64,000 nucleotides of DNA from Kiritimatiellia bacterium (GCA_050949565.1 JBMNFY010000010.1:352611-416610), one strand, 5' to 3'; positions 1-17,214 are shown, counted from the stretch's first letter. The notes: generated by a model not told the origin, from the letters alone. Numbers and translations: made by a program.

Positions 1-458
1 GTGTCGAAGTAGACGCGGGAGAGGCGCACGAGGGCTTTGCGCCCGACGGGGTTGCCGCGCTGTTCTTCGGCGAGGCGCGCGAGGATGGCCTCGGCTTCGG
101 TGTGCTCGCCCCTGAACTTGTGGTAGCAGGCGACGTGCAGGTCGGACTCGCCGCGCCACGGGTCGGCGGGGTGGGCGGCGGAGAAGGCGAGCATGGCGGC
201 GCGGGCCTCGTCCCAGCGGTGGGCGTTCCAGAGCGTCATGCAGGCGCCGAAGGCTTCGTTGCCGACGGCCGAGAAGCGGGCGGGGTCTTCGGTGGTCGGG
301 CTGAGCGCCCCGCCGTGCTCGCCGGACTCTTTCACGGCGGCGGTGGTGAAGTGCCCGGGGCGCGCGGTGCGGGCGAGCGCGCGTTTGGGCTGGGCGGCGG
401 ATGAAACGCCGGCCAGCAGCAGTGACGAAACAAGGACGAGTGTGTTGATTGATTTCAT
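1..458 (-). CDS. Secreted TPR-like protein, 5' part only (runs off the window start; not in the ORF track)
   Basis: ATG at 458 overlaps the TGA of the upstream gene (ATGA). Translation MKSINTLVLVSSLLLAGVSSAAQ... is signal-peptide-like, followed by helical TPR-like segments (WDEARAAMLAFSAAHPADPW, EAEAILARLAEE, ALVRLSRVYF). Frame is open to base 1. Confidence 0.7.
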   Translation of the reverse strand, partial: MKSINTLVLVSSLLLAGVSSAAQPKRALARTARPGHFTTAAVKESGEHGGALSPTTEDPARFSAVGNEAFGACMTLWNAHRWDEARAAMLAFSAAHPADPWRGESDLHVACYHKFRGEHTEAEAILARLAEEQRGNPVGRKALVRLSRVYFD

Positions 459-2947
459 GGCAGGGTGGCTCCTTGGGCCGGATGGATGATTGTAAAAGCG
501 GCTGAACTTTGGACGGGGGTAGCGGGATCGGCGGGGGCGGGGTCGAGTATGTCCAGCAATCCGTCGCCGTCCGTGTCGGCCATACTGTCGTGGATGTTGG
601 GATCGGTGCCCATGGCCGCTTCTTCGTTGTCCGGTATGCCGTCGCCGTCGGTGTCGGCGATGCCGTCCGCCGGGTCGAACGGGTCGGTGCCGTGGACAAG
701 GATTTCATCGCCGTCCGGTATGCCGTCGCCGTCGGTGTCCGGTGTTGTCGGGTCGGTGCCGAGAAACCATTCTTCCCGGTCTCCGACGCCGTCATGGTCG
801 CTGTCGGGGTCATGCGGGTTGGTGCCGATGTGGTATTCCTCAAGGTTCGTCAGCCCGTCGCCGTCCGGGTCGAGGCCTGCGTCGGACGGATCCAGCGGGG
901 CCAGGCCGTGCCTGCTCTCCCAGCCGTCGGGCATGCCATCGTTGTCGGTGTCCCATTTCAGGGGATTGGTGGTCGTGCCGAGGCAATAGGTGATCACGTC
1001 GCCGGAAACGGCTGCATCTTGAGTGTTGAAAGCGACCGGCAGATTGCATTTCCGGCCTCCGGTTTGGGCGCCGAGGGTTGCGCCGCGCCCGTCCGCAATG
1101 CCGCGCATATCGGTGTAATGCACTGACACAATGTTTGAAATTCCTTGGGGGATGGCGATCTGTAGGGTCAGCAAATCGTTTGTAGTGGCCGCCCTGATTT
1201 TCAAATTACGGTATTCAATGACACAGTAACGGTTGCCGTTGGTCATCACATCGGCAACGGTTATTTGCGAGCCCAGTGTGGACGGGTCGGCGGAAAGATC
1301 GTCCCAATAGGCGGCGATATAGGTGTGCGCCGTGGAAATCCGCCAATTAGTCAGATTCTGGTTGTTGTTGCCCGGCATGTCAGCATAGTATGGCCGGATG
1401 GGATTGAGCAGGCCGACGATGCCGTTCACGCTGACGGCGGCGTTTGTAGAGGTCACCCCCGCGATGCGGACGGGGAACGGCAGGGGAACGGTAAAATATT
1501 GGTCGTTATAGGTCATGGTGGCGGACAGCAGGTTCGTTCCGTCGGAAACGTCGAACCGAGCGGCTTGACCGTGCGCGACGCCGAACCACCCGATCTCGTC
1601 GCCGTCCGTTAGCCCGTCGCCATCGGTGTCGGGGTCGTGCGGGTCGGTGCCGGCACGGAACTCGGCAATGTTGGGCAGGCCGTCCCCGTCTGGGTCACCG
1701 TCTGCGCCGTCATTGCCAGAAGCGGAAAGCGGGTCTAGAGCGTTGTCAACCTCCCACTTGTCCGTCATGCCGTCGCCGTCGGTGTCGGGGTTCGTCGGCG
1801 AAGTGCCATGTACCCACTTCTCATTGGCGTCGGTCAGCCCGTCGCCGTCGGTGTCGGCGAGGTCGGCGAGGCGGAAGAAGCCGGTGTCCGTCAGCCAGAC
1901 GGCATTGGTGCAGATGGTGTTGGTATGCGTGACACCGGGAGCGTAGGCAGAGGGCGCGGTGTTTGTGACGCACGCGGGTGCCGGGGCCGCCGGCGGCGGG
2001 GGCAGGTCAGCGCGGGGGATGACAAGATCGACCCCGGCCGCATCGGGATCGACCGCGACCCGCCACGGGTTCGTCCAGGCGGACGCAGTCAGGGACGGGG
2101 TGAAGAAGATGTCCAGCGCGCCGCCGGCGAGCACTGTGCCCGTGGGCCATGCAGCGGAGAGCGCGACGCCGTTCGTGCCTGAAGCGATGCCGGTAAAGGC
2201 CAGCCCGGTCAACGTGGTCGGCGAGCGCGTCGGCGCACCGGCCGCCGTGCTCTGCCGGTCCGCCGCCATGCCGGAACGGTAGTCATCGAGATCTTCGCGG
2301 AGGAGGAAAACGAACGTCATCTCGGTGTGCGACGGCAGAAAATACTGCCGCGTGGACAACCACGCTGAACGGTAAAAGCCCCAGTCCGGCGTCTGCGCGC
2401 GGCGGGAGGGCCTTGCCAGCAAATCTTGATACACCCGCTCGGTATCGAAGAAGTCTGGAGCCGTGCCATCGACGCTGTGAAGTTTGGCGATCCAGTCCGG
2501 CGTGTAGACGGCGGCGTCGGCGGTGACCGACCAGAAGGCATCCCCGGCCGCGTTGTAAAAGAGCACGTCGCCGCTGAGGTCGTCCGCGCACAGGGTCGCG
2601 CGCCACGCCTCGACGCCGTTGACCTCTTCCGGCAGGAGCCCCGCGAGAAATTCTGGCGGGAACCCTGGCGCCGCAACGTCCAGAGGAATGACGCCGCCGT
2701 CCAGCCTGACCCGCCGCTTTGGATCCGGCATGAGCATGCCCGCGCCTCGCGCCAGCTCACGCTCCAGCTTCAGCACCATCTCTAGCGGCGTGGCGGGCGT
2801 CTTGTGCGCAGAAGCGGGCCGGGAGGCGGGTGTCCCCGCCGGAGTCGCGCTCTCTTCGCCCTGCGCCACAAACCAAAAGCTCAAGGTAAACAACGTGCAG
2901 GAAATCACTGCGTATCGAGCCAACACAAAACCGTCCGTCTTTTCCAC
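455..2947 (-). CDS. Large secreted protein with many Ca-binding DTDGDG (thrombospondin type-3-like) repeats and a central nidogen-like domain
   Basis: 830 aa ORF; hydrophobic N-terminus; >10 D[TS]DGDG[LMI].D..E repeats in two blocks; central LPFP...NG...IAAYWDDL segment typical of NIDO-like domains. Confidence 0.8.
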   Translation of the reverse strand: MEKTDGFVLARYAVISCTLFTLSFWFVAQGEESATPAGTPASRPASAHKTPATPLEMVLKLERELARGAGMLMPDPKRRVRLDGGVIPLDVAAPGFPPEFLAGLLPEEVNGVEAWRATLCADDLSGDVLFYNAAGDAFWSVTADAAVYTPDWIAKLHSVDGTAPDFFDTERVYQDLLARPSRRAQTPDWGFYRSAWLSTRQYFLPSHTEMTFVFLLREDLDDYRSGMAADRQSTAAGAPTRSPTTLTGLAFTGIASGTNGVALSAAWPTGTVLAGGALDIFFTPSLTASAWTNPWRVAVDPDAAGVDLVIPRADLPPPPAAPAPACVTNTAPSAYAPGVTHTNTICTNAVWLTDTGFFRLADLADTDGDGLTDANEKWVHGTSPTNPDTDGDGMTDKWEVDNALDPLSASGNDGADGDPDGDGLPNIAEFRAGTDPHDPDTDGDGLTDGDEIGWFGVAHGQAARFDVSDGTNLLSATMTYNDQYFTVPLPFPVRIAGVTSTNAAVSVNGIVGLLNPIRPYYADMPGNNNQNLTNWRISTAHTYIAAYWDDLSADPSTLGSQITVADVMTNGNRYCVIEYRNLKIRAATTNDLLTLQIAIPQGISNIVSVHYTDMRGIADGRGATLGAQTGGRKCNLPVAFNTQDAAVSGDVITYCLGTTTNPLKWDTDNDGMPDGWESRHGLAPLDPSDAGLDPDGDGLTNLEEYHIGTNPHDPDSDHDGVGDREEWFLGTDPTTPDTDGDGIPDGDEILVHGTDPFDPADGIADTDGDGIPDNEEAAMGTDPNIHDSMADTDGDGLLDILDPAPADPATPVQSSAAFTIIHPAQGATLP

Positions 2948-10715: not shown

Positions 10716-10729
10716 AAAGGGGAGCAGAG

Positions 10730-11161
10730 AGTCGGGAGCGCGGGCGTCCCCGCCCGCAACAACGTGTCTTGCGAAAGACTGATGCGCAGATTCCCCCGTT
10801 GCGATTTATGTTTTGACCTGATTTCCCGCTGCGCGGGCGCATAAACGACATGACTGACCTGATTGACATGATTTGGAGGGCGAGTGTCCCCACGAGCCGC
10901 CGGAGCAAAACAATGGAGGGCGAGTGTCCCCACGAGCCGCTTTCCGCTGTGCGGAAAGATGGTTTCGGGTTCCATTGCGGAGCAACGGGAGGGACGAGCG
11001 TCTGCTCGTCCGCGGGCAAGCAGACGCTTGCCCCTCCCGGCGGCGGTCACGCCGCCACCCCAAAAACCTCTGCGTCTCTGCGTCTCTGCGTTAAAAAAAC
11101 GTTCAACTCTCAACGCTCAACGCTCAACTTTCTGCGGGCGGGGACGCCCGCGCTCCCGACT
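10730..11161. repeat. Mosaic intergenic repeat block bounded by a perfect 29-bp inverted repeat
   Basis: agtcgggagcgcgggcgtccccgcccgca (10730-10758) and its exact reverse complement (11133-11161). Inside: 27-bp direct repeat (10874, 10914), 49-bp REP doublet (10987-11035, identical at 57575-57623), CTCTGCGT octamers, CTCAACG heptamers. Confidence 0.85.
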
Positions 11162-11252
11162 GCGCATACACAAAACACGCTCTCGACTTGCATGCCCCTT
11201 GTCACCAACGATTACGAAAGGTCTGCATCAGACAGACACAATACGCCGCAAC

Positions 11253-13397
11253 ATGTGTAAAAATACAACCTTAAAAACAGGGACACGCGGTAGTGCGTTG
11301 GCGGTGTTGCAGACGCAGAGCGCGCTCGAACGCCTCGCCACGTTGTTTCCGGCGCTGACCTTTGAGACGGTCACGGTTGACACCCCCGGCGACCGTGATT
11401 TGGCGACCGACCTGCGCGTCAGCCCGCCGGATTTTTTCACGCGCGATTTGGATGACGCTTTGCGCGAGGGGCATATCGATCTGGCCGTACACAGCGCCAA
11501 GGACCTGCCCGATCCGTTTCCTGATGATCTTGATTGGTTTTGGTTGCCCTGGGGTGAGGACCCGCGCGATGCGTGGGTTCTGCCGCAAGGTAAAACGTGG
11601 ACTGACCTGCCGGAGAAGCCGGTGGTGGGGGTCAGTAGCGAGCGTCGCGCGGCCTGTACGCTGCGCCGCTTTCCGCAAGCGGTGCTCAAGCCGATCCGCG
11701 GCGCGATCCCTTCGCGTCTGGAGCAGCTCGACGCCGGCAGCTATGACGCCCTGCTGATGGCTGGCGCGGCGCTGAACCGGCTCGGCCTGGAAGCACGCGT
11801 GAGCGAGTGGATACCGCTTTCAGAACTGCCGGTGCCCGCCGGCCAGGGACGGCTGGCGGTGACCTTCCGACTGGGCGATCCGGTGCTGTCTGCGCTGCGC
11901 GCCTATTTCGTCAAAGCCGTACGCTTTGTCGGCGCGGGTGTGGGGTCGGCCGATTATTGCACATGGGGCGGCATCAAGGCGTTGCGCCATGCGGAAGTAT
12001 GCCTGTATGACGTGCTGATGGACGATCATCTGCTGACCTTCCTACCGGAGAATGCGGAAAAGATTTTCGTGGGCAAGCGCTGCGGCGAACATACCGTGCG
12101 TCAGCCGGACATCACCGCGCTGATCGCGGATTTTGCCAGACAGGGCAAGCGGGTGGTGCGTCTGAAAGGCGGTGACCCGGGGCTGTTCGGACGGCTGGCC
12201 GAGGAGACCGACGAGTTGGATCGGCTCGCGCTGCCCTACCGTGTGTTGGCGGGGGTCAGTGCCTTGACGGTGGCCACCACGCCGACCGGCATGCTGTTGA
12301 CGCGGCGCGGTGTCGCACGCGGTTTCACGGCCTTGACGCCGCGCGCCGAGGGCGGCGCGGTGGCGGGCGTTTCCCAAGACGTGCGGCAGAAATTGCCGCT
12401 GGTGCTCTTTATGTCGGTGCGTGTCGCGGACGCGATGGCCGGTGATCTGTTGGAGGAGGGCTGGGATGCCGATACACCGGTCGCGGTCATCTTTAACGCG
12501 GGCGCGGATGACGAGACGGTCTGCCGCACCACCTTGTCAGCTCTGCGTGCGGGTACCGCAGAACTGCCGCAGACCGATGCCCCCGGACTGCTGGTGATCG
12601 GCCCGCCTGCCGCTACCGCCTTCCGTCGCGACACCGGCGCATTGCGCGGGTGCCGGGTCTTGGTGACGTGTAGCGAGGCGCTGCTTGAAAAGGCGGCCGT
12701 GCGGATCATCGATTTCGGCGGTGTGCCGCTCTTGAAGCCAATGATCCGCCTCACACCCTGCGCGGCGGCGACGACGGCCGTTGAACGGCTGGCGACCTAC
12801 GACTGGCTGGTGCTGACCTCGCCCTCCGCCGTCCATTTCCTGGTGGCGATGGCGCGTGACGTCCGTCTCGACTGGCGATGCATGCCGAAGCTGATGGCAT
12901 GCGGCCCCGGCAGTGCCGCAGCATTTGAAAGCCATGGTTTCACGCCGGAGTTGACTCCGCCGATGGATTACAGCGCCGAAGGGTTGACGGCGCTCCTGCG
13001 CGAGTATGATTTTACCGGACAGTCGGTGTTGCGCCTGCGTTCCGCGAAGGCGGGGCCGCTACTGGCGGAGGTCTTGCGCACTCAGGGTGCTCAGGTCGAT
13101 GACGTGCAACTCTACACCAACGAACCGATCGTCTATCCACAGTTGCCAGCGTTCGACGCCGTCTTCTTCGCCAGCGCTTCAGCCGTGGAGGCGTTCATCG
13201 CGCAGGCGGGAGTTGCCGCCTTAACGGACAAGACGGTGGTGACGATCGGCAAGCCCACAGCCGCCGCGCTGACGGCGCATGGACGCGCACCCGACGTGGT
13301 GGCCGCCGAGGCTACGGTCGACGGCGCGATCGAAGCGCTGGCGAGGGAAGAAGTAATAGGTGATAGGCAAGAGGTGAATTTAGGATTTAGGAGGTAG
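11253..13397 (+). CDS. hemC: Triple fusion: hydroxymethylbilane synthase (domains 1-2 only), uroporphyrinogen-III C-methyltransferase (CobA) and uroporphyrinogen-III synthase (HemD)
   Basis: Start reassigned to ATG 11253 because the upstream ORF extension is repeat DNA. HemC: GTRGSALA..Q, VHSAKDLP, EDPRD, GQG. CobA: VGAG.G, VGKR, RLKGGDP.LFGR..EE, GVS. HemD: WLVLTSPSAV, G...A, V.LY, FASASAV, IG..TA. Confidence 0.85.
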   Translation: MCKNTTLKTGTRGSALAVLQTQSALERLATLFPALTFETVTVDTPGDRDLATDLRVSPPDFFTRDLDDALREGHIDLAVHSAKDLPDPFPDDLDWFWLPWGEDPRDAWVLPQGKTWTDLPEKPVVGVSSERRAACTLRRFPQAVLKPIRGAIPSRLEQLDAGSYDALLMAGAALNRLGLEARVSEWIPLSELPVPAGQGRLAVTFRLGDPVLSALRAYFVKAVRFVGAGVGSADYCTWGGIKALRHAEVCLYDVLMDDHLLTFLPENAEKIFVGKRCGEHTVRQPDITALIADFARQGKRVVRLKGGDPGLFGRLAEETDELDRLALPYRVLAGVSALTVATTPTGMLLTRRGVARGFTALTPRAEGGAVAGVSQDVRQKLPLVLFMSVRVADAMAGDLLEEGWDADTPVAVIFNAGADDETVCRTTLSALRAGTAELPQTDAPGLLVIGPPAATAFRRDTGALRGCRVLVTCSEALLEKAAVRIIDFGGVPLLKPMIRLTPCAAATTAVERLATYDWLVLTSPSAVHFLVAMARDVRLDWRCMPKLMACGPGSAAAFESHGFTPELTPPMDYSAEGLTALLREYDFTGQSVLRLRSAKAGPLLAEVLRTQGAQVDDVQLYTNEPIVYPQLPAFDAVFFASASAVEAFIAQAGVAALTDKTVVTIGKPTAAALTAHGRAPDVVAAEATVDGAIEALAREEVIGDRQEVNLGFRR

Positions 13398-13586
13398 GAT
13401 TTAGGAGGTATGTCTACCAACTCCTAATTCCTAATTCCTTGCCTATAACTTGAGCGTTAAAAGTTGAGCGTTGAGCGTTAAACGTTTTTTTAACTCTGAA
13501 CGCTGAACGTCGAACTCTGAACGCTGAAGTCGAAAACTCCTAACTCCTAAATCCTAAATGCTAACTCCGCGCGTAGCGCGGCCGCG
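13350..13586. repeat. Nested inverted heptamer arrays (TAGGA../..CTCCTAA; TTGAGCG/CTGAACG) between convergent genes
   Basis: taggatttaggaggtaggatttaggagg ... ctcctaattcctaattcc; tgagcgtt..gagcgttgagcgtt ... ctgaacgctgaacg; ctcctaactcctaaatcctaaat; ends with ccgcgcgtagcgcgg. Confidence 0.8.
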
Positions 13587-15566
13587 CTAGTGCGCTTGTC
13601 GTACATTAAGCAGCAGTACGCCGTGTCCCGGAAGTTCCGCCGTGAAGGTATCGGCGGTGATGACGCCGAGGTCTTTCTGACGCCAGAGGTCCCGCAGGCG
13701 CTGCGGGCCTTTCAGCCCGAGCGATGCAAACGGCAGCGTGACGGTGCGGGTCAGGCAACCTCGGTTGAAGAGCCCTGCGACGGTACTGCCGTCCGACATT
13801 GTTTTTGCCCAGATTTCCTGTGCGTCGTCGTGCTGCACGCACACCGCTTGCCGCCCCAGCGGATCTTGGTTGACCTCCAGTACTTCATCATTGGTCAGCA
13901 GGTTTAGGGTGAAGGGATCGAGTTGTGTCAGGTCGCAACCGAGCAGCAGCGGCGAGGCGAGCAGGCACCAGTATGAGATGTGGCTGTACTGTTCGTTTGG
14001 CGTGAGGCGTGTCGGGTGCGGCGTTCCCCATCCGACAGTGCCGACCACCAGCATGTCGAGATCATTCCAAGCGCCGGGCTCGGCGAACAGCTCGAAGCCC
14101 TCCTGCGCTCGCACGATCCCGATCACGCTCTCCCACGTGTCCACGATGTCGTGCGTGGTGCGCCAGCACTGCCCGCCGACTCTTGCGCCCCAGGCCGGCA
14201 CATGCCCCATGCCGTACTGGCAGAGGCTGAATAGTAGATCGCGTGGCTGTGCGCGCAACGCCCGGTTCATCACGCGATAGGGACGCATCAACTCGCTAAG
14301 CGAATCGTCGCGGGCGCGTTGTGCATAGCTGCACCAATCGTACTTCAAATAATCAAAGCCCCATTCGGCATAAGTTTGCGCATCCTGCACTTCGTGACCC
14401 CAGCTTCCAACACATCCGCCGCATGTGGTTGAGCCCGGCGACGAGTAGATGCCGATTTTGAGGCCGAGCCGATGGACATCGCGGCAGAGCGCTGCCATGT
14501 CAGGAAAACGTGCGTTGGGCAGGATGCGTCCGGCGCTGTCGCGTGCCGGTCCCATGAGCGAGGTGTCGGTGCGTTCGCCCGGCGAGGTCTGCCAATAGTC
14601 GTCGATATTGACATAGCTCCAGCCGTGTCGGATCAAGCCGCTTTCGACCATGGCCTGCGCGGCGGTGCGGATGTTGGCATCCGAAACCGTGTGCGCGAAA
14701 CAGTTCCACGAGTTCCAGCCCATCGGCGGCGTGAGTGCGATGCGTTCACCGACCTCCAAGCGCCACTCGCGTTCGGCGGTGCCGTGCGCATTGGTGGCGC
14801 GGAAGGTCACGCGGTAGCTGCCCGCCTCGGCGACCGATCCTGTGATCAGGCCGCGCGTGCCATCCAGCGCAAGGCCCTCCGGCAGTCCGTCCACCGTCAG
14901 GGTGAAGGGCGGCTCGCCGCTGACCGGGATGGTGAAGAGCACGGGACGGCCGGGACGTACGCCGAAGACGCGCGCGCCGTTGATGCGCGGTACCTTTGAC
15001 GGTTTCGGCGTCAGGATGCCCATTTGCTCCGTCGGCGGACGCGGCAACGGCTTCAGAACCGCGCCGTCACGCACCGTGAAAAAGGCGTCGCACCAGTCGG
15101 CGTGATCGTGTGTGCTGCCGTCGCCGGCGTCTGAGACCTCCAGCACGACCACCTTGGCACCAGCCAGTTCCGCCGTCAAGTTGTGCGCGGGCTGCCGGGC
15201 ATGCCGTACGCCGGAATCGGCCACGAGCCGGCCGTCGGCGTACACGCGGAAAATGGCGGAACCCCGACCGCGGATCAGTGCTTCGTCATCCATGCCGACC
15301 TGTGCCTCGAAGCGCAATGCCTCGCCGCCGGTCTCGATCGCGAACCAACTCGGCGCGTGCGTGCCGACACCGCGCTCAAACTTTTTCCGTGCGATTTTCA
15401 GGGGACTGCCGCCGACCGCCTGGCGTGCGAGGGGATGCTCCCAACCGCAGCTCATATAGGCAAGATCCAGCTCGTCAAGCCAGACGCGCGTCTGCGCCCT
15501 GACAGCCAAGCCCGGCACGAGCATGAGAGCGAGAAGCATGAAACACGAAAAGGGACTCTTTAACAT
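13587..15566 (-). CDS. GH27 alpha-galactosidase with NPCBM/NEW2 and Ig-like domains, secreted
   Basis: GVGTHA...HADW (NPCBM); TPPMGWNSWN, YVNIDD.W, GIYS, DYLKYDWC, WRTT.DI, WNDLDML.VG, LASPLLLGCD, NQDPLG. Confidence 0.92.
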   Translation of the reverse strand: MLKSPFSCFMLLALMLVPGLAVRAQTRVWLDELDLAYMSCGWEHPLARQAVGGSPLKIARKKFERGVGTHAPSWFAIETGGEALRFEAQVGMDDEALIRGRGSAIFRVYADGRLVADSGVRHARQPAHNLTAELAGAKVVVLEVSDAGDGSTHDHADWCDAFFTVRDGAVLKPLPRPPTEQMGILTPKPSKVPRINGARVFGVRPGRPVLFTIPVSGEPPFTLTVDGLPEGLALDGTRGLITGSVAEAGSYRVTFRATNAHGTAEREWRLEVGERIALTPPMGWNSWNCFAHTVSDANIRTAAQAMVESGLIRHGWSYVNIDDYWQTSPGERTDTSLMGPARDSAGRILPNARFPDMAALCRDVHRLGLKIGIYSSPGSTTCGGCVGSWGHEVQDAQTYAEWGFDYLKYDWCSYAQRARDDSLSELMRPYRVMNRALRAQPRDLLFSLCQYGMGHVPAWGARVGGQCWRTTHDIVDTWESVIGIVRAQEGFELFAEPGAWNDLDMLVVGTVGWGTPHPTRLTPNEQYSHISYWCLLASPLLLGCDLTQLDPFTLNLLTNDEVLEVNQDPLGRQAVCVQHDDAQEIWAKTMSDGSTVAGLFNRGCLTRTVTLPFASLGLKGPQRLRDLWRQKDLGVITADTFTAELPGHGVLLLNVRQAH

Positions 15567-15571
15567 AGCAA

Positions 15572-17044
15572 TTAAGTTACTGGGGGAAGACAATGCGGTA
15601 GAAGCGCGAGGGGGTCAGGGTCGATGAAGTCGAGGGTGCCGGAGGCGGGGATAACGGTGTCGGAGAGGGGGAGCCAGTGGGGGGACATGAGGCTGTCGCT
15701 GGCTTGGATGCGGACGGGGATGCTGGCGTTGCCGGTGAGCGTAAAGGCAAATACCCCGGAGGCGAGTGACGTCGAACTGAAGGCGGGGTTCCAGCAGACG
15801 GCGGGACGCCCGGCAAAGGAAGATGACCAGCCAGTTGTACCGGGAAGGTAATAGAGCGTGGCGGGGGCACTGTAGAACACGGTGGTATTCATTGCCGGGG
15901 CATTGCCAGTGAAGAGAACGGAAGTGAGGGATGTGCAGTGTTCGAAGGCGTAACTGCCGATGGATGTGACACTGTCGGGGATGGTGACGGAGGTAAGGAG
16001 GGCGCGGGAGACGAAGGCGCCGTCAGCGATGGCGGTGACGAGAAGTCCGTTTAATACCGCTGGAAGGGGAAGGTGGCCGGTATACCCCCACCCATCATCA
16101 TTGAGACCGGTGATCGTGATTTGTGTACCATTGGAACTGTACAAGAGCGGGACCAGTTTGGTTGGGAGCCCTGCGGCGGTCTCAGACCACCCGGTGGTGT
16201 CGGGAAGGTAATAGAGCGTGTTTGTGGCGTGAGTGTTGTCGAATGTGTTGTCTTGAATGGTCGGGAGGTCGCCGGTGAAGAGGACGGATGTGAGGTTGGT
16301 GCATCCAGCGAAGGCGTAGCTGCCTATGTTTGTTATATCACTGGGGATAATGATGTCGGAGAGGGCGGAGCAGTCGTAGAAGGCTTCGTCGCTGATGTTT
16401 GTGAGACTCTCTGGAAGAGTGACGGATGTGAGGTTGATGCAACCATAGAAGGCTCTGGGGCCGATAGATGTGACGGGACATCCGTCCAATATCGTCGGGA
16501 GAGGGATGTGGCCTACGTACCGATGATCAAGATCCGTGATTGTGATTTGCGTACCGTCCGAACTGTACCAAAGCGGAATCAGTTTGGTTGGGCGCTCCGC
16601 GACGGTCTCCGACCATCCGGTGGTTTCGGGAAGATAGTAGAGTGTAGCGGGAGTGTTATCGAATGAGTTGTCTTGGATGGTCGGGGCGTTGCTGGTGAAA
16701 AGGATGGTGGTGAGATTGGTGCAACCGGCGAAGGCGCAATTACCGATGTTTGTAACGCTGTCAGGGATGGTGACATCGGTGAGGGCGGTGCGGTTGCGGA
16801 AGGCATCGTCGCCGATGGAAATGACAGGACAACCGCCCAGTTCGTTGGTGATGGATAAATTGCCCGAGCAGGTGCTGTCGAAGTCAGTGATGGTGGCTTG
16901 GCCGTCGCTGACGGTGTAGGTGTAGGGGCCGAAGGTGTCGGCGGGTAAGACAAAGGGGATGAGCAACGCGAGATGCGCAAACGCCAAGCTGCGAATGCGC
17001 AGTGAACGGAGCGAGCATGTGAAGCGGGATGCTGTGTGTTTCAT
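15572..17044 (-). CDS. BspA-type leucine-rich repeat (LRR_5) surface protein with three internal repeat units; C-terminal frameshift likely
   Basis: Start ATG 17044 with GAAAGGA RBS; LT.VTIPDSVTSIG..AF..C repeats; three units ending LYYLP.TTGWS; RFYRIVFPQ* lies in an alternate frame ending 15577. Confidence 0.85.
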   Translation of the reverse strand: MKHTASRFTCSLRSLRIRSLAFAHLALLIPFVLPADTFGPYTYTVSDGQATITDFDSTCSGNLSITNELGGCPVISIGDDAFRNRTALTDVTIPDSVTNIGNCAFAGCTNLTTILFTSNAPTIQDNSFDNTPATLYYLPETTGWSETVAERPTKLIPLWYSSDGTQITITDLDHRYVGHIPLPTILDGCPVTSIGPRAFYGCINLTSVTLPESLTNISDEAFYDCSALSDIIIPSDITNIGSYAFAGCTNLTSVLFTGDLPTIQDNTFDNTHATNTLYYLPDTTGWSETAAGLPTKLVPLLYSSNGTQITITGLNDDGWGYTGHLPLPAVLNGLLVTAIADGAFVSRALLTSVTIPDSVTSIGSYAFEHCTSLTSVLFTGNAPAMNTTVFYSAPATLYYLPGTTGWSSSFAGRPAVCWNPAFSSTSLASGVFAFTLTGNASIPVRIQASDSLMSPHWLPLSDTVIPASGTLDFIDPDPLALLPHCLPPVT

Positions 17045-17074
17045 GGCCGTCCTTTCGATTAGTGGATGTATGGT

Positions 17075-17104
17075 ATGGTAAGACGGGGGGACGGGGGGAT
17101 GCAA
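17075..17104 (-). promoter_or_regulatory. Putative promoter for the BspA-like gene
   Basis: Minus strand TTGCAT-N18-TACCAT. Confidence 0.35.
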
Positions 17105-17214
17105 GGGGAAAAGAACGAAAGGACGCCGAGCAGGAACAGCCAATGAGTTTATTAGTGCCTTATTGGCTTTATCGGTCGGCACGGCACTAATGAACTAAAA
17201 CAGGGTGTTTGCGC

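Follow-up and report, generated by a model that had tools for sequence, protein, structure and literature searches.

Gene content of the haem locus

We analyzed a stretch of 64,000 nucleotides (hereafter, the window) from a Kiritimatiellia bacterium, an anaerobic-digester organism (GCA_050949565.1 JBMNFY010000010.1:352611-416610), in which one gene joins three consecutive steps of haem-precursor synthesis. The gene encodes, in this order, HemC (hydroxymethylbilane synthase, HMBS), CobA (uroporphyrinogen-III C-methyltransferase, SUMT), and HemD (uroporphyrinogen-III synthase, UroS), in an open frame of 714 codons without internal stops (Table 1). A second haem gene, in which a SirC module is fused to HemA, lies upstream. 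A longer open reading frame (ORF) starts at GTG 10884; it is probably unused, judging by the homologues, which are mostly ~700 residues long and align from about residue 6.

Table 1. Window coordinates of the two haem genes, the modules of the triple fusion, and the residues discussed in the text
Feature	Position	Strand	Evidence
SirC/CysG-N (precorrin-2 dehydrogenase/chelatase type)-HemA (glutamyl-tRNA reductase) fusion, 500 residues	9213..10715	+	Pfam, TIGR01470
Spacer between the two haem genes, 537 nucleotides, full of dispersed short repeats	10716..11252	.	repeat counts
Whole gene HemC (domains 1-2)-CobA-HemD, 714 residues plus stop	11253..13397	+	translation, Pfam, NCBIfam, homologues
HemC module (hydroxymethylbilane synthase domains 1 and 2), residues 1-221, up to the domain-3 hinge	11253..11915	+	PF01379, 1PDA superposition
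D60/F61 codons of the HemC module	11430..11435	+	conservation counts
Asp84 codon, catalytic Asp of HSAKDLP	11502..11504	+	invariant in the fused-family alignment; codon position checked
CobA/SUMT module, residues 222-460	11916..12632	+	PF00590, TIGR01469, CysG/NirE alignment
Cys236 codon (DYCT), first turn of CobA helix 1	11958..11960	+	Cys counts
Cys250 codon (EVCLYD), CobA strand 2	12000..12002	+	Cys counts; co-occurs with Cys236 in fused forms
HemD module, residues 461-714	12633..13394	+	PF02602, Thermus UroS match

The HemC module ends where domain 3 would begin

A preliminary description of the window had held that the HemC part of this triple fusion lacks domain 3, which anchors the cofactor of the canonical enzyme, and the domain assignments bear this out. 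Pfam places Porphobil_deam (PF01379) at residues 8-210 (E 3e-51), TP_methylase (PF00590) at residues 225-431 (E 2.5e-32; 113 bits against a cut-off of 27.8), and HEM4 (PF02602) at residues 482-693 (E 4.5e-41; 140.9 bits against 27.5). Porphobil_deamC (PF03900) was not found by Pfam in the 714-residue protein even at E<=1, nor did the protein match a domain-3 hidden Markov model (HMM) that we built from 34 canonical sequences. The NCBIfam hemC model TIGR00212 is matched with 173.3 bits (cut-off 164), with only profile positions 1-207 of 293 covered, and the SUMT model TIGR01469 with 185.3 bits, barely above its cut-off of 185. When the PDB was searched with phmmer, residues 5-212 aligned to residues 4-212 of the E. 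coli enzyme (1PDA), i.e., to domains 1 and 2 only, and residues 223-454 to residues 218-446 of CysG, with NirE aligned too. The motifs quoted in the preliminary description (GVSSERR, RGAIPSRL, and HSAKDLP) are all present in the translated protein, in which PAGQGRLAVTFRLGDPVLSALRAYF runs directly into VKAVRFVGAGVGSADYCT.

The structural account of the E. coli enzyme in PMC3945110 assigns residues 1-99 and 200-217 to domain 1, 105-193 to domain 2, 218-221 to the hinge, and 222-313 to domain 3; the cofactor sits on C242 in the turn 240-243 (PMC3945110; PMC7242693, section 7). In the fusion, the CobA strand VRFVGAG starts at residue 223, next to the position at which E. coli domain 3 starts (222). 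Therefore, CobA stands in for domain 3 directly at the hinge, without an intervening linker. Compared with canonical HMBS (1PDA, 1AH5, 7CCY, and 4HTG), the fusion has domains 1 and 2 in common, at 36-38% identity, and keeps Asp84, R11/R12, S13/S14, Q19/Q20, K83, S129, R131, R132, R149, R155, R176, and the QG hinge, but it lacks domain 3, the cofactor turn, and Cys242, and its HemC module is joined to CobA instead.

A predicted structure shows the same module limits. AlphaFold2 (58 sequences) modeled the whole 714-residue chain with a predicted local distance difference test score of 87.0 and a predicted template modeling score of 0.88, and we compared this model with solved structures by Foldseek and VIA-align, which report only the first and last aligned residues. 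Residues 4-219 superpose on 1PDA over 207 residues with a root-mean-square deviation of 1.8 A (Z 22.8), and across HMBS structures domains 1-2 superpose over 207-218 residues at 1.8-2.0 A (Z 22-23.5). Residues ~220-457 match SUMTs (Z about 18-20 to CysG, SUMT, and NirE), and residues 465-705 match Thermus UroS (1wd7_B; Z 16.6, 235 residues aligned). On human HMBS (7ccy_C; model 5-329 against chain 19-324) and plant HMBS (4htg; model 4-267 against 10-270), the superposition extends into the CobA part, with ~10 extra aligned residues. These are ranges and not coordinates, and they fit a CobA module lying at the place of domain 3. CobA takes over exactly where domain 3 would set in, and so the module probably closes the cleft on that side.

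The CobA module differs from the usual form in its S-adenosylmethionine loop, which reads GAGVGS instead of GAGPGD. Residues D253, K275, R303, R314, and M387 are invariant in the fused-family alignment (121 sequences); by an alignment offset of 5 they correspond to D248, K270, R298, R309, and M382 of CysG, which we take to be important residues of that enzyme. CysG (1PJQ and related) is likewise a multifunctional tetrapyrrole fusion with the same SUMT module, but its SUMT is joined to a SirC-type dehydrogenase/chelatase; in the window, the SirC-type module belongs to the neighboring gene, where it is fused to HemA.

Two-domain HemC proteins form a lineage of their own

The truncation is not specific to this assembly. 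Among the best 120 of 1701 matches to the fusion (603-770 residues, 98-52% identical), PF01379, PF00590, and PF02602 occur together in 120/120 and PF03900 in none; one of them (P0003) is 98% identical over 714 residues, at 100% coverage. The named homologues among the matches listed are Kiritimatiellae/Kiritimatiellia, except for one Verrucomicrobiota and two called only “bacterium.” We also searched 201 genomes of the phylum (G000 included) and found PF01379 in 121 and PF03900 (E<=0.01) in 68. Within the class of the window, 44 of the 45 genomes with HemC have no PF03900 match, and the class HemCs lie mostly within open frames of about 670-800 residues; outside the class, PF03900 is present in 67 of 76 HemC-bearing genomes.

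The range of architectures became apparent when 1.84 billion cluster representatives were searched with residues 1-222 and the 150 best (50% clusters) were classified by Pfam and our own HMMs. Domain 3 is present in 36 of these representatives (26 plain, 7 followed by HemD, and 3 behind a SirC module). The remaining ones are HemC-CobA-HemD (62), HemC-CobA pieces (4), a C-terminal HemC behind SirC-HemA or SirC (18), HemC-HemD without domain 3 (13), HemC alone (7), and fragments (10). We collected 33 full-length SirC-HemA-HemC sequences, those with names being Planctomycetota or Candidatus Brocadiia, and none has PF03900. The short chlamydial HemC proteins mentioned in the preliminary description are real: the stand-alone homologues are 211-275 residues long, PF01379 is the only match in 120/120 listed, and those named among the matches listed are Chlamydiales, Rhabdochlamydiaceae, and Verrucomicrobia. 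The suggestion that the variant extends throughout the Planctomycetes-Verrucomicrobia-Chlamydiae (PVC) group thus proved correct, and too narrow. Judged by record titles, the lineage includes Planctomycetota/Brocadiia, and the titles of 78 loci add Phycisphaerae, Sedimentisphaerales, candidate division WS1, Armatimonadota, Omnitrophota, Victivallales/Lentisphaerae, and Spirochaetaceae.

In a maximum-likelihood tree of 130 HemC domains, a branch with 98% support in the Shimodaira-Hasegawa-like approximate likelihood ratio test splits 36 canonical rows from the other, two-domain rows; three truncated, canonical-like rows (P0264, P0268, and P0269) group on the canonical side. The two-domain side falls into two sub-groups, one with the triple fusions and nested HemC-HemD forms that lost CobA, and the other with the Planctomycetota-type, stand-alone, and remaining HemC-HemD forms. 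On this sequence evidence, the HemC module belongs to a distinct, old two-domain lineage. Four HemC-HemD proteins of 511-563 residues (P0208, P0209, P0212, and P0227) carry ~100-150 residues between the two modules, with a weak TP_methylase match in P0212 (E 6e-7) or no match; from its sequence, this stretch looks like a decayed CobA module.

A known short form is described by the model NF002202 (PRK01066, 241 positions), which, together with the chlamydial and verrucomicrobial stand-alone proteins, is two-domain like the fusion, falls on the same side of the 98% branch, and has D60, F61, and A82 in common with it. The fusion scores 153 bits against a cut-off of 251, over model positions 18-215, and lies outside this equivalog, the nearest members found being P0211 (238.5 bits), P0222 (232.7), and P0262 (217.5). 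Unlike the fusion, the short proteins occur alone or before HemD (L031 and L079), and they belong to the other two-domain sub-branch.

Gene order is constant across differently cut genes

The triple fusion, the form seen in Kiritimatiellia and Lentisphaerae, occurs in more than 50 loci. In eight Planctomycetota-type loci, the arrangement is [SirC-HemA-HemC][CobA-HemD], with genes that abut or overlap; a ninth (L016) starts inside the HemC gene, and its upstream modules lie outside the available sequence. Two Omnitrophota loci have a HemC frame of 215-236 residues followed by CobA, and two Chlamydiae loci have HemC followed by HemD. Hence, in loci that also encode SirC/HemA and CobA, the modules keep the order SirC-HemA-HemC-CobA-HemD and only the gene borders differ. 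The same domain order with different gene cuts argues for a conserved functional unit.

Parts of this unit are familiar from other fusions. Bifunctional CobA-HemD proteins are known from Desulfovibrio vulgaris, Clostridium, and Lactobacillus reuteri. Those following SirC-HemA-HemC in Planctomycetota-type loci have CobA before HemD, for sirohaem/precorrin-2, as the fusion does, but the fusion carries HemC in front and has GAGVGS with Cys236 and Cys250, in contrast to GAGPG with I/L/V in unfused CobA. HemC-HemD proteins with a complete HemC, as encoded by the hemC/D gene of Leptospira, make up the 7 representatives mentioned above in which domain 3 is followed by HemD; there, PF03900 lies between the modules, whereas the fusion has CobA at that place. 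The joining of deaminase and cosynthase in one chain, in these proteins as in the fusion, suggests a hand-over of the unstable bilane.

Planctomycetota-type HemCs (L013, L011, L028, L017, and others) end in a conserved Cys-free tail, ...PLDLGDR(E/K)G(L/M)PW(A), which sits just before, or overlaps, the CobA-HemD start. Such a tail might act as a docking peptide for the enzyme that follows. A complex prediction for the L013 HemC domain with CobA-HemD (score 0.00, mark 0.32, run with no controls) speaks neither for nor against binding.

The active site is conserved without a common cysteine

To describe the conservation of the HemC module we compared four sets: 121 fused, 33 Planctomycetota-type (SirC-HemA-HemC), 119 stand-alone, and 36 canonical sequences. 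Residues R12, S14, Q20, D47, F62, H80, S81, K83, D84, S129, R131, R132, R149, R155, R176, Q198, and G199 are at least 90% conserved in all four sets, and D84, R131, R132, R149, R155, and R176 are invariant in the fused-family alignment. The preliminary description had listed GVSSERR and RGAIPSRL as departures in substrate-binding motifs; they do not amount to lost binding residues, as S129, R131, R132, R149, and R155 are all retained. The module as a whole is also well kept, with 46 of 215 columns invariant in the fused family, where mean pairwise identity is 65% for HemC, 66% for CobA, and 56% for HemD.

Five positions (T52, D60, F61, D67, and A82) are common to the three two-domain sets and differ in the canonical enzymes. 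D60 is found in 121/121 fused, 33/33 SirC-HemA-HemC, and 110/119 stand-alone sequences, where canonical enzymes have G in 28/36; F61 is found in 121/121, 31/33, and 118/119, respectively, where canonical enzymes have L in 22/36. Canonical E and L stand at the positions of D67 and A82. The adjacent F62 of E. coli lies at the base of a loop and stacks on R11, according to the structural account in PMC3945110.

No cysteine column is common to the groups in the alignment of the fused, Planctomycetota-type, and stand-alone sets. HemC domains free of cysteine occur in each of them (2/121, 2/33, and 2/119, respectively), and one stand-alone protein has no cysteine anywhere. The C-terminal tails of the Planctomycetota type (consensus PLDLGDREGLPWA) contain a cysteine in 1/33 and those of the stand-alone proteins in 19/119.

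The preliminary description had further pointed to an unusual cysteine (DYCT) about 40 residues after GQG as a possible relocated anchor. This residue, Cys236, lies 37 residues after GQG (197-199) and is indeed conserved in the fused family, being Cys in 119/121 members and at 47/56 fused loci. However, all 12 unfused CobA genes found at the fetched loci have I/L/V in this column, 10 of these genes lying directly downstream of a two-domain HemC, and in nested HemC-HemD forms the residue is gone with the CobA module. Cys250 behaves in the same way (121/121 family members, 44/56 fused loci, and 0/12 unfused CobA). When 235 fused CobA domains were pooled, 173 had both cysteines, 43 only Cys250, 11 only Cys236, and 8 neither. 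Since the two residues occur in fused and not in unfused CobA, they mark fused CobA, and so does the loop sequence GAGVGS where unfused CobA has GAGPG. The conservation that had been noticed is therefore confirmed, and the relocated anchor as a general answer is not: by the sequence counts, neither Cys236 nor Cys250 can be the general anchor of the clade. The two may still have a local role in the fused sub-lineage.

The fusion carries the only HemC of a genome with a probable Ahb pathway

The genome of the window (4.66 Mb, 21 contigs, 92.4% complete) has no second hemC: the fusion gene is its only PF01379 match and also the only match to our own HemC, CobA, and HemD HMMs. PF03900 was not found in its six frames at E<=1, at the completeness given, and our domain-3 HMM, run with --max on 74,577 six-frame genome segments, gave nothing (best E 0.43). 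The neighboring SirC-HemA protein matches NAD_binding_7 (16-123), Sirohm_synth_M (128-153), GlutR_N (167-310), and Shikimate_DH (331-456) in Pfam, and TIGR01470 with 100.3 bits (cut-off 62.3). Elsewhere, the genome encodes HemL (551 bits, cut-off 527), HemB (E 4e-126), a fused AhbA/AhbB sirohaem decarboxylase of 365 residues (NF040707, 221.1 bits, cut-off 125; NF040708, 152.8 bits, cut-off 140), neighboring AhbC- and AhbD-like radical-SAM genes with full-length matches, and a cytochrome-c assembly protein. A URO-D match is partial (profile positions 73-343, 103 bits) and was not used. The simplest reading is that of a sirohaem-dependent (Ahb) haem pathway, for which the fusion would supply precorrin-2 from porphobilinogen. 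Two other destinations were considered and set aside in this 92%-complete genome: sirohaem made by the operon for a sulfite/nitrite reductase (no PF01077 match) and cytochrome bd as haem user (no PF01654 match).

The SirC-HemA protein lacks the GlutR dimerisation domain: PF00745 was not found at E<=1, and NF000744 was covered only from 3 to 340 of 447 positions. Nor is PF00745 listed for Planctomycetota-type SirC-HemA-HemC proteins; for unfused HemA matches, that search does list it. Dimerisation of HemA may now fall to the SirC module, which is dimeric.

DNA nearly identical to this locus is present in metagenome runs from bioreactors, anaerobic digesters, biogas fermenters, activated sludge, and wastewater (16 studies, with two of the run rows possibly being the source of the assembly itself). 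Both haem genes also appear in metatranscriptome contigs, from four libraries of as many studies, and one contig matches 11147-13465 without any difference, a hint that both genes are expressed.

How a two-domain deaminase might work

We consider the gene to encode an active enzyme converting porphobilinogen to precorrin-2, whose deaminase module works without the canonical cysteine thioether, and we assign this reading, drawn from sequence comparison, a probability of about 0.65. The HemC module would be a real hydroxymethylbilane synthase that keeps the catalytic Asp and the arginine/serine cage for the pyrrole side chains. The trifunctional enzyme would convert porphobilinogen to hydroxymethylbilane, then to uroporphyrinogen III, and then to precorrin-2, which would feed the Ahb pathway. 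Channeling from porphobilinogen to precorrin-2, one of three readings offered in the preliminary description, fits both the architecture and this pathway. We infer porphobilinogen deaminase activity from the position of the module as sole copy in an otherwise complete pathway. If the module is active, the chain must be primed or held without the canonical Cys thioether; it could be held non-covalently in the conserved cage or via another group. We think that the arginine cage holds the chain non-covalently, or that Asp60 forms a labile link with it, more probably than that a thioether is hidden, and priming that is non-covalent or otherwise independent of a thioether is the most likely of the three earlier readings.

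Several points weigh against this interpretation. Every studied HMBS uses a Cys-linked dipyrromethane (PMC7242693, section 7; PMC3945110), so activity without it is deduced from context only, and the part given to Asp60 is conjecture. The AhbC- and AhbD-like proteins score below their NCBIfam equivalog cut-offs (623.2 against 650 and 347.3 against 500 bits, respectively), the genome is only 92.4% complete, and the RNA-library contigs may come from contaminating DNA. The tree is unrooted, and its canonical set consists only of the 36 nearest canonical cluster representatives. Finally, two genomes depart from the general pattern. One of the class, G158, has a canonical HemC (C34:26247-27101), and another of the phylum sample, G178, has a canonical three-domain HemC plus a 721-residue fused frame (C69:359-1222; C74:3901-4512); therefore, coexistence of the two forms is possible.

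A more radical form of the thioether-free reading is that hydroxymethylbilane synthesis in the two-domain clade dispenses with the dipyrromethane cofactor altogether. The enzyme itself would then hold the first porphobilinogen after its deamination, add three more, and pass the bilane directly to the fused or adjacent HemD and CobA. We regard this as possible and put it forward tentatively.

The alternative that keeps the thioether is an anchor relocated in cis, in which a cysteine of the following module (Cys236 of CobA, or the TCSE cysteine of HemD in forms without CobA) carries the dipyrromethane. CobA takes the place of domain 3 in the sequence, and Cys236 sits on the beta1-loop-helix1 element directly after the hinge, at a distance from GQG close to that of the E. 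coli cofactor cysteine, which we take to be 43 residues. The conservation of Cys236 in the fused family is as this alternative would have it, and four of the five nested HemC-HemD proteins shown (P0136, P0138, P0154, and P0156) have an LTCSE cysteine ~15-25 residues past the end of HemC. Against it, P0175 and P0202 lack the TCSE cysteine, 51 of the 235 pooled fused CobA domains have no Cys in the Cys236 column (8 lacking Cys250 as well), Cys236 is present in 0/12 unfused CobA at the loci, and the stand-alone and C-terminal HemCs have no following module at all and seldom a tail cysteine. Moreover, Cys236 stands where a usual helix start (LLT/LIT) has Leu/Ile, and it is mostly paired with Cys250 in the neighboring strand (173/235), which looks more like a CobA-internal pair than an anchor. 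We consider a relocated anchor unlikely.

Somewhat more doubtful still is the view that the HemC module is non-catalytic and serves solely to bind porphobilinogen or a bilane, acting as a scaffold, a sensor, or a carrier, the hydroxymethylbilane coming from an unrecognized enzyme or from outside. A feature held to be indispensable is missing, and pure binding is conceivable given that domains 1-2 have a topology like that of periplasmic binding proteins (structural account in PMC3945110). Against it, Asp84 and all cage residues are at least 90% conserved in every group, HemC is as constrained as CobA, and HemC takes its place in pathway order within the fusion. In addition, 44/45 HemC-bearing genomes of the class have no other HemC, and the steps before it (HemA, HemL, and HemB) and after it (HemD, CobA, and Ahb) are kept.

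It is very improbable that another protein, diverged beyond recognition, contributes domain 3 or its cysteine in trans. Split enzymes are common, canonical domain 3 forms a lobe of its own beyond a hinge (as described in PMC3945110), and the genome is incomplete, but the six-frame searches gave nothing for PF03900 or the domain-3 HMM, and the same 44/45 class genomes with HemC lack a match. The two haem genes of the window have no conserved small gene as a neighbor, and our four HMMs, domain 3 included, match no further ORF at the fetched loci, where ORFs are otherwise unannotated. An assembly or gene-calling artefact (a frameshift or chimera joining a truncated hemC to cobA-hemD), for which only the draft state of the genome in 21 contigs could be cited, we regard as already refuted by the open frame, the same architecture in 120/120 listed homologues of diverse origin, more than 50 loci, and dozens of 50% clusters, and the identical RNA-library contig over 11147-13465.

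Flanking repeats and neighboring genes

Repeats flank the fusion gene on both sides (10716-11252 and about 13440-13600). The spacer contains an 18-mer inverted pair at 10740 and 11134, with 30 copies in the genome, and a 26-mer at 10876, with 86 copies. An Rfam search of the 537-nucleotide spacer gave no match reaching its gathering score; mir-612, P35, and RsmW scored 20-25 bits against gathering scores of 52-100 and were taken as chance. RNA-library contigs break or pile up at the repeats, where depth reaches hundreds to thousands against 5-30 over genes, and contig joints link about 11039-11098 to about 13448-13542.

The remaining genes of the window are unrelated to tetrapyrroles. The neighbors at 13587-15593 (-), 15572-17182 (-), and 455-2947 (-) encode an NPCBM-alpha-galactosidase, a BspA-type leucine-rich-repeat protein, and a bacterial TSP3-repeat protein, as is typical of polysaccharide-degrading PVC bacteria.

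Implications

The treatments of the enzyme in PMC7242693 and PMC13564367 describe the self-made, Cys-linked dipyrromethane primer as a fixed property of HMBS, and the two-domain form goes unmentioned there. We found no publication on a HemC without domain 3 in full-text searches outside the subscription journals, so that the large two-domain clade is apparently, and provisionally, undescribed. Its genes carry the name “hydroxymethylbilane synthase” or “uroporphyrinogen III methyltransferase/synthase,” with no further remark.

An entire lineage, which by record titles extends over several phyla, lacks domain 3, and its HemC is the sole deaminase of genomes in which the other haem steps are retained. 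This leaves two possibilities: the cofactor is not an absolute requirement, or its attachment is of a kind that has not been observed before. Probably, a textbook reaction is run here in a manner that has not yet been worked out. The domain-3 cysteine also frames the interpretation of human HMBS variants. If the cofactor-free form were true, a tetrapyrrole step that ranks among the most conserved would have two catalytic solutions, with the second in use in Kiritimatiellia, Lentisphaerae, Planctomycetota (anammox relatives among them), Chlamydiae, and others. The finding bears on gene annotation, on pathway reconstruction in anaerobic-digester and anammox communities, and on the engineering of short precorrin-2, sirohaem, or B12 pathways.

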